Of a stretch of 64,000 nt of DNA, positions 60,080 to 64,000 are shown piece by piece. The translations under genes were made by a program, and so were the position numbers. This stretch comes from an uncultured Holophagales bacterium. Its GTDB lineage: Bacteria > Acidobacteriota > Thermoanaerobaculia > Multivoradales > UBA5704. Location: the NCBI GenBank assembly GCA_963842525.1, contig CAWJGT010000009.1, forward strand, positions 128,001-192,000, given 5' to 3'. Every line of letters begins with the position of its first letter. The stretch's first letter is position 1. The notes beneath the pieces are model-generated. The model was given only the letters and a program-made list of their open reading frames with translations, was not told where the DNA came from and searched no databases.

Positions 60080-61141
60080 TTATTCAGGTGGCTCGGTCTC
60101 ACGCCTGCCTGCGACCAACGCTAACGCACGGCTGTGTGCTTTCTGGTCTCCTCGGATTGCATCGCCGAGCACTTTTCGCCGCTGGTCATCATATAAATAA
60201 ACGCGGACAGTGTTGGTTTTATAACCCGAGAGCTCCGCCACTTCCTCAATGGAAAGACCACGCTCAGGGTCACCAAGCATCTCGTCTTCGAGTCGGTGGA
60301 TGGTGAGAACATCCCGACTGGAGAAATCTCTCAATTCAGCCTCATCCTCCACCGCTTCCCAATCGTCGCGAACAGGCGCCTCCCGGGTGACCTCCGGGTC
60401 CAAAACCAGCAACCCAGGGAGTTCTACCTTCTTCACACCAATCTGGTAGCGCTTGCAGATGTCGACTAGCTTTTCTCCGTCAATCAGATAAACCACCCGC
60501 TGGTTTTGTCCTGGTCTCGCCTCATTTTGGGCGTCGGCACTGAATCGGCCGGTTGTCACAATGATCGCTGTATCTTCCTCGCCCTTCACGCCCCGCATCA
60601 TGCGGACCTCGTCGACTGGAACAGTTCGAGCGGTCCATCTTTTTGCGGATACGATGGCTCGGGCGCCCACGACACCTCGCTGGTATACCACGCGCGCATC
60701 TGCACCACCATCGCGAGTAGCTTGCGTGATCTGAACGTCCTGGAATCCCAGCGCATCGAGAACGCGAGTGAGGAATGTGGACTCGAACGTGCGCCAGTCC
60801 ATCCGCTGCAGCCACGCTCGAATCTCCTCGCCGACAGCCTCGTTCTGCTGATGAACACGGGCTTCGATGTCGCCTGCATTCGATCCCCGAGCGAATTCGC
60901 TCCCCTCGCGAAGCCGAACCCATCCGCGCTCTTCGCCGTCGCGGGACGTTATGAACCGAGTGCGTTCGCCGAGCTCTTCGAGGCGCTGATTCTCCGATTG
61001 AATCGCCAGGTACAGGGACTGGTAGGGAAGGTCGGGGTACTTCTCTTCGCGCCGAATTTCTTCGAGAAGTGCCTGGAGGCGCGCTCTCCCGCCAAGAGCC
61101 TGGAGCCGCCTCTCGATTCGATCTACTCGCCTCTCCGCCAT
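60080..61141 (-). CDS. Mrr-like (type IV) restriction endonuclease
   Basis: FE..L..LGF, TRDGGAD...SAKRW, IIVTTG.FS, LIDGEKL; lower GC. Confidence 0.85.
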   Translation of the reverse strand: MAERRVDRIERRLQALGGRARLQALLEEIRREEKYPDLPYQSLYLAIQSENQRLEELGERTRFITSRDGEERGWVRLREGSEFARGSNAGDIEARVHQQNEAVGEEIRAWLQRMDWRTFESTFLTRVLDALGFQDVQITQATRDGGADARVVYQRGVVGARAIVSAKRWTARTVPVDEVRMMRGVKGEEDTAIIVTTGRFSADAQNEARPGQNQRVVYLIDGEKLVDICKRYQIGVKKVELPGLLVLDPEVTREAPVRDDWEAVEDEAELRDFSSRDVLTIHRLEDEMLGDPERGLSIEEVAELSGYKTNTVRVYLYDDQRRKVLGDAIRGDQKAHSRALALVAGRRETEPPE

Positions 61142-61469
61142 CGGGTTCTCAATCCTATTCCAGTCGGGCCCCTGCCCTCTGCGGCTAACGACACGGAAGA
61201 CCTCCAAGGTCCAGAATAGGCCTAACTTACGCCCCCTGACGGGTTGATGTCAACGACGACCGCTCCCCACTCCTCCTCCCGCCCCCCGAACCACCAAAAA
61301 AGATAGGCGGCTAGCCCAGGCGTCTCCAGGCCCCTGTCGGGTCGCCGGCTGGCGCTCCGCCCGCGCCTGTCCCCTGCCCTCTCGACCCACCCCTGTGGCC
61401 CCGCCCCCGCCCTCCCCGTGAGGCCCCTGTGCGGCCCCAGGTCGTGCGACCGTGCCAAGGCCCAGCCGG

Positions 61470-61610
61470 CGGCTCCGCTTCGAGATTCTGGGGTGGGCGA
61501 GGGGATGCTGCAGGATCAGGGTGATCGCCTTTTGGACCTCGGCAGCGAATTCGGCGCCGAGGCCGGGCCGGCAACCTTCGTAGTAGTCGACCGCCGCCTC
61601 CAACTCCGCC
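61470..61610 (-). pseudogene. ParE toxin remnant
   Basis: AVDYYE..RPGLG.EF..EV..AI..I..HP. Confidence 0.65.
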
Positions 61611-61659
61611 CTGGCTGGCGCCAGGAACGGACATAGGTGCCACCCATTAGAAGGCTCTT

Positions 61660-62080
61660 GTCAACGACCCACACGTCTCCCACCCGGGAGTGTTCGTTTC
61701 AAGAACGGCTCGTTCCGGCAAGATGTGCTCCCGTGTCGGGTTTGCGCGCCCGTAGTCTCGCTGTGCTTCAGGTGCGGAGATCCGCACCAGCCACCCATCG
61801 GGATCAAGGCGGGTCGGAGCCGGTGACGGCTCCGACCCGCCCCTGGCACGGTTTGCGTGCCCCCAGAAAATCTTCGGTTCCAGGTTCGTGTCCAAGGGTT
61901 CAGGACAACCAATAAGGCTACCTCCGCCCCCCCGAAAGGTTCAGAGGTGCCAGCACATTCGGGCTCACGACCTGGGCGCATCTCCAACAAAAGAGCCAAA
62001 AACGGTGGAAGACAGGGGCCAATCAGCCGTAGAGGGTTCTTTCGCCCAGCACCTAATTGCAGGCTCCCTGTCTTCCACCT
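61660..62080 (-). ncRNA. Predicted bridge/seek RNA region
   Basis: Perfect 14-bp stem (62004-62017/62066-62079) enclosing two segments that match the element's flanks; further hairpins at 61771-61788 and 61808-61841. Confidence 0.75.
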
Positions 62081-62083
62081 GAA

Positions 62084-63100
62084 TCAACCAAAAGCTTGCG
62101 CCGACCTGAACGGCACCTGGTCGCGCAGGATGTAGTACGCGGCACGAGTCAGCTTGTTCGAGATCGTCCGCAGGGCCACCAACTCGTTGGTCCTGGCCCG
62201 CTTGCGCTCGTAGAGACGCTTGGCGAGGGGCTCGAACCGAATGGCGAAATGTGAGGCCTCCATGAACGCCCAGGACAGGTACGGGTTGCCATTGCGTACG
62301 TTGCCGGAGCCCTTGACCTTGCCGTTGCTGAGGTGCTGACTGGGTACACAGCGGCAGTAGGAGGAGAAGTGGCCCGCCTCGGCAAAGCGAGCGATGGAGC
62401 CGGTCTCGTACATGATCGTCAGGGCAAGGGTCAGACCGATGCCGGGAATGCTCTCGAGCAGCTCGAACTCGGGCCTCAGTCTGGCCTGTTTGAGAACAGT
62501 TTTCTCGATGCCAGAGATTTGGTCTTTCAGCGTGCGGGCGATCGCCAGGCTGCTCGTGATCGTCAAGGCAATATGTGGGTCTGTGAATTGCTCCTCGACC
62601 TGCTCGGCAGTCATGCGCTTGAGCTCGCTGAGAGGAACTTGAGCTCCGGTGTAGCGCGAGAAGACGTTTTTGACGCTCAGCAAGCTGGCGGTGCGCTGTC
62701 GCACCAGAAAGGCCCGGCGGCGCAGTAGATCCCGCACCGCGCGCTCCTTTTTCGGATAGATGTGGCCGGTGGGCAAAATGTTGAGGTGGAGTAGACGCGC
62801 CAGCCATCGCGCGTCATGGCGATCATCGACGTACTTCAACCCCTCGTACTGGCGAACTGCGGAGGTGTTGACCAAGCGAACCTCGTAGCCGGCCTCCATG
62901 AGGCCATCCACCAACCAGTACCAGTTGAAGGTGGACTCCACGGCGATCGCCTGGATCTGCTCCCGGAAGGGCTCCAGGGCTTCCAGGGCCGCCTCCAGAC
63001 GGTTGGGCAACCGACGGCTGAGGACAGCTTGTAGTTGTTCGTTCATCACCACGAGATAGCTGTTGGTTGAATGCAAGTCGATTCCGCAGTACAGTCCCAT
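62084..63100 (-). CDS. IS110-family transposase/recombinase
   Basis: GIDLH, VESTFNWYW, DD.HDA (DEDD RuvC); SIPGIG, S.G serine domain. Confidence 0.95.
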   Translation of the reverse strand: MGLYCGIDLHSTNSYLVVMNEQLQAVLSRRLPNRLEAALEALEPFREQIQAIAVESTFNWYWLVDGLMEAGYEVRLVNTSAVRQYEGLKYVDDRHDARWLARLLHLNILPTGHIYPKKERAVRDLLRRRAFLVRQRTASLLSVKNVFSRYTGAQVPLSELKRMTAEQVEEQFTDPHIALTITSSLAIARTLKDQISGIEKTVLKQARLRPEFELLESIPGIGLTLALTIMYETGSIARFAEAGHFSSYCRCVPSQHLSNGKVKGSGNVRNGNPYLSWAFMEASHFAIRFEPLAKRLYERKRARTNELVALRTISNKLTRAAYYILRDQVPFRSAQAFG

Positions 63101-63219
63101 ACGCTCCTCCTTTCAGGGATTGGTCTCCCGACGAGCCTATCGCGGCTCGTCAGAAGGGAGGAGCCTTCTAGAGGATCATCAGCCGAACAGTGTCTGGCGC
63201 CTCGGGCGGAGCAGCTCAG

Positions 63220-63653
63220 CACGAGATCGAGGTGGAGGACTGCGTGGTGGCAGCGCTAAGCTTCTCCAGTGGCGCTCGCGGCACGATCGTCGCCACCACC
63301 GCGGCCTCGCCGGGATTCCCGCACCGCGTCGAGGTCTATGGCAGCCGGGGCGGGGCGCAGATCGAGGGGGACGCGCTGGTCCGCTGGGAGGGCGATGCGC
63401 GCCCGGGATCCGCCCCCAGGCACCTGCGGCGGCACCTGCCGCGGTGGCCGCGGGATCGGGGGCCAGTCCCACTGGCATCGGCACCCTCGGGCACATCCTC
63501 ATCGTGCAGGATTTCGTCGCCACGATCCGCGAGGGTCGCGACCCGCTGGTGGACGGAGTCGAGGGTCGCCGATCCCTGGCGCTGGTCCTCGCCATCTACG
63601 AGGCCGCCGGCCTCGGCGGCGAGAATCGAGGGGTTACCCCAGAAACTTTCTGA
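63220..63653 (+). pseudogene. Gfo/Idh/MocA oxidoreductase C-terminal remnant
   Basis: EVED, R.EVYGS.G, H...VQDFV..IR.GR.P.V...EG.RSL..V.AIY; frameshifts. Confidence 0.7.
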
Positions 63654-64000
63654 GGTACCTCGGAACCCTTCTGAGGTGCTGGAAAAAAGTTTTGGGGTAC
63701 CTCAGAAGTTTTCCGAAGTACCCCAGAAACTTTTCGAGGTACCTCGGAACCGTTCTGAGGTACTGGAAAAAAGTTTTGGGGTACCTCAGAAGTTTTCCGA
63801 GGTACCTCAGAAACTTTTCGAGGTACCCCGGCACCGTTCTGAGGTACTGGAAAAAAGTTTTGGGGTACTTCAGAAGTTTTCCGAGGTACCTCAGAAACTT
63901 TTTGAGGTATCTCGGCACCGTTCTGAGGTACTGGAAAAAAGTTTTGAGGTACCTCAGAAGTTTTCCGAGGTACCTCAGAAACTTTTTGAGGTACTTCGGA
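63630..64000. repeat. 21-bp tandem repeat with 84-bp higher-order period; runs off the window edge
   Basis: Cycle GAGGTACCTCGGAACCGTTCT / GAGGTACTGGAAAAAAGTTTT / GGGGTACCTCAGAAGTTTTCC / GAGGTACCTCAGAAACTTTTC. Confidence 0.92.

Follow-up and report, generated by a model that had tools for sequence, protein, structure and literature searches.

Which kind of mobile element occupies positions 61641 to 63181 on the minus strand of the window analysed here (the whole stretch of 64,000 nucleotides (nt) from contig CAWJGT010000009.1 of the uncultured Holophagales bacterium assembly GCA_963842525.1), and how is its insertion site chosen? The interval is very probably an intact IS1111-group member of the IS110 family, the target of which is read by a structured guide RNA (a seekRNA or bridge RNA). 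The extent of the element, which includes the crossover dinucleotides at both ends, has been set by comparing the ends of its copies, and the high-side boundary has been taken from uninterrupted sites; counting one core, the element is 1539 bp long, and the core reads TG in the orientation of the element and CA on the plus strand. The original prediction, made from the sequence of the window, was of an IS1111-type element with a guide RNA that reads both target halves on opposite strands, and this is borne out by the protein family, the repeats, the shared target, the covariation and the conserved hairpin.

The DEDD transposase open reading frame, which had been predicted on the minus strand, is present (63100 to 62084) and encodes 338 residues followed by the stop codon. 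Its identity follows from Pfam, from NCBIfam and from the alignment to solved recombinases. The Pfam matches are PF01548 (E 1.5e-14) and PF02371 (E 5.4e-18), being the N-terminal RuvC-like DEDD domain and the C-terminal Transposase_20 domain, the score with the NCBIfam model NF033542 ('IS110 family RNA-guided transposase') is 190.7 bits, well above the cutoff of 140, and the two solved recombinases ISCro4 (9t56) and IS621 (8wt6) match the sequence at E ~2e-11. NCBI's pipeline would already give this transposase its correct name. In these alignments, E55, D93, D96 and S258 are aligned with the catalytic positions of the ISCro4 and IS621 chains; D8 is assigned solely from the GIDLH motif at the start of the Pfam match. 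All five residues are kept in copies c1, c3 and c4 of the element. The C-terminal motif reads C-V-P-SQHL-S-N-G, in which the proline, the spacing and the serine of the IS1111 motif, GL-P----S(t)G, are retained and N is found in the place of G; the same C-terminal S-N-G is carried by one relative (L070).

The gene is preceded by 79 nt of non-coding DNA, when measured to the corrected left end, and is followed by 443 nt between the stop codon and the right end. Near the ends there is a perfect 10-bp subterminal inverted repeat, formed by GAGCCTTCTA in the left end (63161 to 63170) and TAGAAGGCTC in the right end (61648 to 61657), both given as read on the plus strand; a repeat of 7 to 17 bp is the criterion of the IS1111 group, and both arms covary in the relatives. 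Searching for such repeats with exact 9-mers is too noisy in the distant relatives, and the boundaries have been set by copy-to-copy comparison instead. The gene, the repeats and the non-coding layout agree with the anatomy of the IS1111 group as given by Siddiquee et al. (PMC11187229) and by Durrant et al. (PMC11208160).

The target-binding hairpin, the core of the seekRNA, lies at 62004 to 62079 on the minus strand, as seen from the fold and from a covariance model. The perfect 14-bp stem that had been described directly after the stop codon is indeed there (62004 to 62017 paired with 62066 to 62079), beginning 4 nt past the stop, and it is extended by a further 3 bp and closed by an internal loop, which holds the two proposed guide segments with a small GGG/CCC hairpin between them. 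The 5' guide, UAGGUGC (62055 to 62049), begins 31 nt past the stop, pairs with the right flank at 7/7 positions and covaries in the relatives. The 3' guide, CGGCUGAU (62029 to 62022), the CGGCUG of which begins 57 nt past the stop, also covaries and matches at 8/8 positions, being composed of CGGC-UG-AU. It had been taken as a half-site match throughout; CGGC and UG do match the left target half and the core, but AU matches the first two bases of the element itself, as in a left-target-guide-like (LTG-like) segment. The top-strand match is thus 5' of the bottom-strand match, which is the order found in all IS1111 members tested by Siddiquee et al. (PMC11187229), and the same order is found by an automatic search in 37 of 43 related loci, some of the six failures being due to miscalled stops. 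The non-coding tail as a whole folds better than its shuffles (z = -5.74).

A hairpin directly past a stop codon could also be a mere transcription terminator of the transposase gene, with two coincidental matches to the flanks. Terminators are common at the ends of insertion sequences, and a U-rich stretch, GUUUUUGGCUCUUUUG, lies 3' of the stem. This explanation is nevertheless extremely improbable. The U-run is not kept in the relatives, and the hairpin is absent from the list of the terminator scan. When 300,000 random genomic pseudo-sites are compared with the 446-nt tail, 137 have both half-matches anywhere in it and 1 has both inside the loop in the right order, and therefore the matches between guides and flanks are far beyond chance. 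The covariation of the loop segments with the flanks in related elements refutes the terminator as the sole explanation.

This covariation is at the same time evidence for the guide function of the hairpin. The relatives come from a one-genome-per-species scan with 557 relatives, from which the best 80 loci have been kept. Thirteen loci with 70-83% identical proteins, from metagenome-assembled genomes (MAGs) of Acidobacteriota (Thermoanaerobaculia, Holophagales), align over the full length of the element, and in these the scaffold of the hairpin is conserved, whereas the loop segments differ and the flanks differ likewise. For example, the guides GAAGCGC and AGCC occur with the flanks GCGCTTC and AGCC, and the guides CAAGTGC, AAGGTGT and AAGGAGC with the flanks GCACTTG, ACACCTT and GCTCCTT, respectively. 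When 7 bases are compared on each side, of which three on the left side (TG and the following A) are near-invariant and without signal, guides and flanks of nine lineages in this range of identity agree at 118/126 positions, a value that is reached by 2 of the 362,880 permutations; for the 5' guide alone the agreement is 60/63 (120 of 362,880 permutations) and for the 3' guide alone 58/63 (4 of 362,880). The test has been extended with 7 bases per side to relatives with ~50% identical proteins, the ends of which have been set from copy comparison and conserved end motifs, giving 43 loci, of which 38 have a frame of 330-350 residues. The 28 distinct guide regions from these 38 loci score 357/392, compared with a shuffled mean of 255.5 (standard deviation 7.0, maximum 284), and none of 5,000 shuffles reaches the score.

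The structure of the hairpin is preserved as well. A covariance model built from six close hairpins finds the structure directly past the stop codon in the window and in 26 of 67 loci (E <= 0.01), together with two spurious matches on the opposite strand. In the model-fitted alignment, 94% of the cells are paired (64% after shuffling) and 17 of the 19 pairs have changed on both sides, and no shuffle and no slid register comes near these values. A second apparent match to the target, UGGCACCU (61952 to 61945), does not change with the flanks in the relatives and is considered to be part of the scaffold. The concerted changes of guides and flanks support a natural reprogramming of these elements: the relatives show at least nine guide pairs on one scaffold, which can be seen as a natural reprogramming series from soil Acidobacteriota and their relatives and could be useful for recombinase mining.

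Where exactly does the element begin? The left end reads CGGC-TGA-TGA-TCC, and because TG is present twice, one copy alone cannot identify the TG at which the crossover takes place. Two of the copies lie in a sequence of which there are three uninterrupted paralogues, and these read ..GTGC-CA-GCCGAA on the plus strand, without TCA. A sister element, the protein of which is 82% identical, is present in several copies in the MAG of a relative, with the flanks AATAGCC and GCGCTTC. The genome of that relative has five empty sites, and when gaps of 0 to 9 nt are allowed, a 2-nt gap is found in all of them (TG in four, CG in one) and a 5-nt gap in none. Moreover, the first TG is invariant across all related families, and the second is TA in most. 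From the empty sites and the invariant first TG it follows that TCA (63177 to 63179) is part of the element and that the high-side core is at 63180 to 63181, 3 nt away from the position (63177 to 63178) at which it had been placed; the core at the right-end junction is at 61641 to 61642, as judged from the comparison of copies and relatives. A core two bases further into the right flank (GC) is ruled out, as GC has no fixed place at the left junction.

The empty site is accordingly TAGGTGC-CA-GCCG on the plus strand, or CGGC-TG-GCACCTA in the orientation of the element, and this replaces the earlier version, TAGGTGC-CA-TCAGCCG. The genome that was searched consists of 34 contigs with a total of 9.95 Mb. 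The corrected 13-mer is found in it 3 times without a mismatch and 33 times with one, and the 16-mer of the earlier version has 0 matches at <=1 mismatch. The left target half, CGGC, is the flank at 63182 to 63185 and matches the 3' guide, and the right target half, GCACCTA, is the flank at 61634 to 61640 and is complementary to the 5' guide. What an occupied site has in addition to an uninterrupted one is the element and one TG, such that there is no duplication of the target. More generally, an insertion site that is read from a single copy may be some bases off where the end of the element repeats the core, as TGA-TGA does here, and this ambiguity matters when targets are designed from sequence alone.

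The same target is shared by the other copies in this genome. There are four full copies (100, 100, 97 and 95% DNA identity) and several fragments. The left flank is CGGC at all four full copies and AGGC at one left-end fragment, and the six right-end junctions that adjoin genomic DNA read GCACCTA (three), GCACCTG (two) and GCACTCA (one), which correspond to 7/7, 6/7 and 5/7 matches. Further out than ~10-15 bases, no two flanks are related, apart from those of two copies in paralogous repeats. No copy in this genome has the same loop in an unrelated target; such copies had been named beforehand as what would refute the original prediction. Many of the target sites carry a wider common context, such as ..TGTT-CGGCTGGCACCT.., and the target is therefore a segment of a short repeat that is dispersed in the genome, which is the usual situation in the IS110 family.

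Some features of these sites and copies are described here for their own sake. The dispersed repeat around the 13-mer (..GAATGTT-CGGCTGGCACCTA-TTCGGGCA.. and variants) is seen, for example, at C9:241439, C9:243640, C1:564205 and C1:564271, and one occupied target is accompanied on both sides, at distances of up to ~200 bp, by two near-perfect copies that are unoccupied. The target of the sister element occurs four times within 1 kb in the relative (G001:C26:225137-226112, L096-L099), in a cluster of repeats. A reading of the TGGCAC of the target as the -24 box of a sigma-54 promoter was dropped, the -12 GC being off the consensus spacing in the sites compared (judged by eye). At C9:241650-243506, the final ~317 bp of the right end are repeated directly behind a full copy, and this rearranged pair is as a whole in a proper target, with CGGC on one side and GCACCTA on the other. 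An origin of the pair by guided insertion into the near-target of the element itself does not fit the inner joint, ..ATGGGTG|TGCTGGCACC... The fragments C3:1636205-1637215 and C9:824534-824758 end within 5 bases of the same internal position, and the DNA that abuts them recurs at three further places with 96-99% identity; this looks like a copy that has been split by another mobile element.

How could the gene of such an element be expressed? An outward TTGACA is present in the right end on the minus strand (61664 to 61659), as had been noted, and it is TTGACA in 29 of 30 loci and TTGACT in the other. In the computed circle junction, which with the corrected core is predicted to read ..CTAATGGG-TG-ATGATCC.. 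(in the earlier model, ..GGG-TG-ATCC..), the ATGAT of the left end (63175 to 63179, minus strand) and the G of the core generate the hexamer GATGAT at 17 nt from TTGACA. The earlier proposal of a circle-junction promoter thus had the TTGACA and the 17-nt spacing right, but the -10 hexamer is GATGAT and not GATCCT. The spacer is 17 nt in 21 of the 30 loci, 18 nt in seven and 16 nt in two, the -10 hexamer is GATGAT or GATAAT in 20, and the predicted promoter as such is conserved in 30/30. Inside the linear element, a consensus scan finds no sigma-70-like promoter. In the proposed mechanism, excision to a circle would join TTGACA of the right end to GATGAT at the left end, and the junction would serve as a promoter for the recombinase gene and, by read-through, for the guide RNA; the hairpin directly past the stop codon, with its two guides, would then direct the insertion at 5'-CGGC-TG-GCACCTA-3' without target duplication. 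In a Methylococcales relative (L057:3045-3110), the terminal 33 bp on the right side, which include TTGACA and the end motif, are tandemly duplicated.

The remaining 360 nt of the non-coding region are also conserved, and the hairpins in this part have compensatory changes. In this multi-branched part, ~130-200 nt further on, two single-stranded segments, GAAGAUUUUC and AUGGG-UG, are placed such that they could read the left and right ends of the element itself, in the manner of a donor-binding loop. The candidate right-donor guide, GAAGAUUUUC (61866 to 61875, minus strand), could form 7 Watson-Crick pairs and 1 G-U pair, of 10 positions, with the stretch made up of the core G and the 9 nt with which the left end begins. 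The candidate left-donor guide, AUGGG-UG-GC (61790 to 61798, minus strand), corresponds at 9/9 positions to the sequence that runs from the final 5 nt of the right end through the core to the second base of the right flank. An apparent match to the left end, UGAUCC (61806 to 61801), does not change with the ends and is counted as scaffold. The evidence for donor guides is weaker than the evidence on the target side, and it is weighed here against a rival reading, according to which the short hairpin RNA does all the guiding, the protein reads the ends via the subterminal repeats, and the downstream 'donor' motifs belong to a conserved scaffold, the resemblance of which to the ends is due to common descent. 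This seekRNA-only explanation is in agreement with the finding that the 82-nt seekRNA of ISEc11 alone supported the transposition of a mini-element flanked by the target (PMC11187229), and there is little variation for testing, given the high conservation of the downstream motifs as well as of the ends.

Such variation as exists points the other way. The AUGGG-UG-GC motif is found in 42 of 43 loci, at 9/9 positions in 33 and at 7-8/9 in the other nine. Where the right end is changed to ATGAGTG (L051, L064) or ATGGCTG (L037), the internal motif has the same change, and the base that follows the core in the motif (G, A, C or T) tracks the flank in 38 of the 42 loci. For GAAGAUUUUC, the cognate pairs with the left end score 127, compared with a shuffled mean of 115.8 (2 of 20,000; 18 distinct pairs from 26 loci), in a test from which 3 of 29 loci were left out for want of an anchor and in which one row with a wrongly set boundary was retained with a score of 0. 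When the changes are placed on a tree of 37 recombinases, five are counted for the donor-side RNA base and seven for the flank base, and only one or two independent pairs are on supported branches, too few for a sign test; the tree-aware test of the donor side is thus underpowered, which is a further point for the seekRNA-only explanation. With both sides considered, this explanation is unlikely, although it is a serious contender.

A related feature concerns the bases next to the guides. Each of the two left guides continues beyond the core with two bases that match the partner DNA; these are AU, with which the left end begins, and GC, with which the right target half begins, and the last base of the target-side guide follows base 2 of the left end in 5 of the 6 loci where this base is not T. 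In the handshake guides of IS621 (Hiraizumi et al., PMC11208158; PMC13626964), two guide-adjacent bases likewise match the DNA partner that is not cognate to the guide, in the form in which it is joined once the strands have been exchanged. In IS621, however, the extra bases come after the right (top-strand) guides, and in the present element, where the comparison is one of sequences, after the left (bottom-strand) guides. It is conceivable, although we remain doubtful, that in this clade both bottom-strand guides are prolonged by two bases, with which they read beyond the core into the partner DNA, as a mirror image of the arrangement in IS621. No discussion of handshake bases in an IS1111 element was found in the passages on handshake guides that were consulted. 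If true, IS1111-type elements would read their own ends by RNA after all, and either strand exchange would take place in the opposite order or the extra bases would recognize the two integrated junctions for excision.

The element can now be compared with the known systems. With the seekRNA elements of the IS1111 group (ISEc11, ISPa11, ISKpn4 and ISPst6; PMC11187229) it shares a DEDD transposase of 330-350 residues, the subterminal repeats and a long downstream non-coding region, a hairpin RNA of ~80 nt directly past the stop codon with the top-strand match 5' of the bottom-strand match, and also the absence of target duplication, a promoter assembled at the circle junction (a predicted one here) and natural retargeting between relatives. 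It differs from them in its target (CGGC-TG-GCACCTA), in its C-terminal S-N-G in place of S/T-G, in its longer 3' region (443 nt), in being known from sequence alone, and in its host, which has a genome of ~10 Mb, the nearest relatives of the element being in Acidobacteriota MAGs. With the bridge recombinases IS621 and ISCro4 (PMC11208160, PMC11208158) the protein shares its fold family, as judged from the alignments to 9t56 and 8wt6 at E ~2e-11, and there are also two guides per DNA partner (on the donor side candidates here), on opposite strands and with an overlapping 2-nt core, a separate donor-reading part (a candidate here) and a dispersed target like a repetitive extragenic palindrome (REP-like). 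In contrast, the RNA is here 3' of the gene and not 5' of it, the order of the guides is reversed, the core is TG and not CT, and there are long subterminal repeats. Furthermore, the donor motifs are in a multi-branched region and not in a simple internal loop, and the right guide (7 nt) is longer than the left one (4 nt and the core). The mechanism was published in 2024, and nothing in this element departs from those descriptions, with the mirrored two-base extensions as a possible exception; it would be one more natural, intact seekRNA/bridge-RNA element.

Is the element in the window still mobile? The anatomy, the common target, the covariation and the conservation of the structure and of the catalytic residues are seen directly. 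Several observations weigh against the reading of an intact, RNA-guided element. The C-terminal P-x4-S-N-G differs from the S/T-G described for IS1111 transposases by Siddiquee et al. (PMC11187229). A search of 61300 to 63500 against Rfam gives no match at E <= 1, so a curated model that confirms the RNA is lacking, and the hairpin pair counts given above come from a model-fitted alignment that included the two spurious rows. The candidate right-donor guide GAAGAUUUUC is imperfect, with 2 mismatches in 10, and is the weakest of the four guides, and the donor-side covariation on the tree depends on few independent changes. Not all copies are functional, since the copy at C9:853817-855358, listed with 100% DNA identity, has one extra base, by which the frame is shifted after about residue 159 into a 378-aa frame; this base could be real or an assembly error. 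Finally, in the contigs of four DNA runs of one sample, which are fragmentary, no joints of a circle or an empty site are found. Two loose contig ends in these runs continue into other flanks after ..TAGGTGC and ..GCCG, which is too thin to count.

Some observations favour the alternative that the copy is a dead relic, with the anatomy of an RNA-guided element but no longer mobile: neither expression nor excision has been seen, one sister copy is frameshifted, and several fragments and a rearranged copy are present. The relic explanation is nevertheless quite unlikely. In the copy in the window the 338-aa frame is unbroken and no catalytic residue has been lost, and the frame is likewise open in the copies with 97 and 95% DNA identity, such that three copies have both the frame and the five catalytic residues, and the copy that differs by a single inserted base at another locus points to recent movement. 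For the intact element, we infer that the RNA is made and bound by the protein, and that the circle is formed and inserted. The original prediction had named it a 'complete, programmable RNA-guided recombinase', of which the complete element with a defined target stands; programmability and activity remain inferences, and neither a circle junction nor an excision product has been seen.

The neighbourhood of the element in the window is as follows. Adjoining the left end, the frame at 63190 to 63660 on the plus strand encodes a GFO/IDH/MocA oxidoreductase of which no more than the C-terminal portion is left (the match begins at residue 5 and covers profile positions 71-123 of 124), and the gene has therefore been cut on its 5' side at or near the insertion. 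On the other side, ~430 bp from the element, a 375-aa frame on the minus strand (60083 to 61207) has an Mrr-type restriction endonuclease domain (PF04471, E 8e-22). From 63635 to 64000 there is a tandem array of 21-nt palindromic units with a super-period of 84 nt (4.4 copies, 93% matches), which runs past the end of the window, and short tandem repeats also adjoin several other copies of the element and empty target sites.

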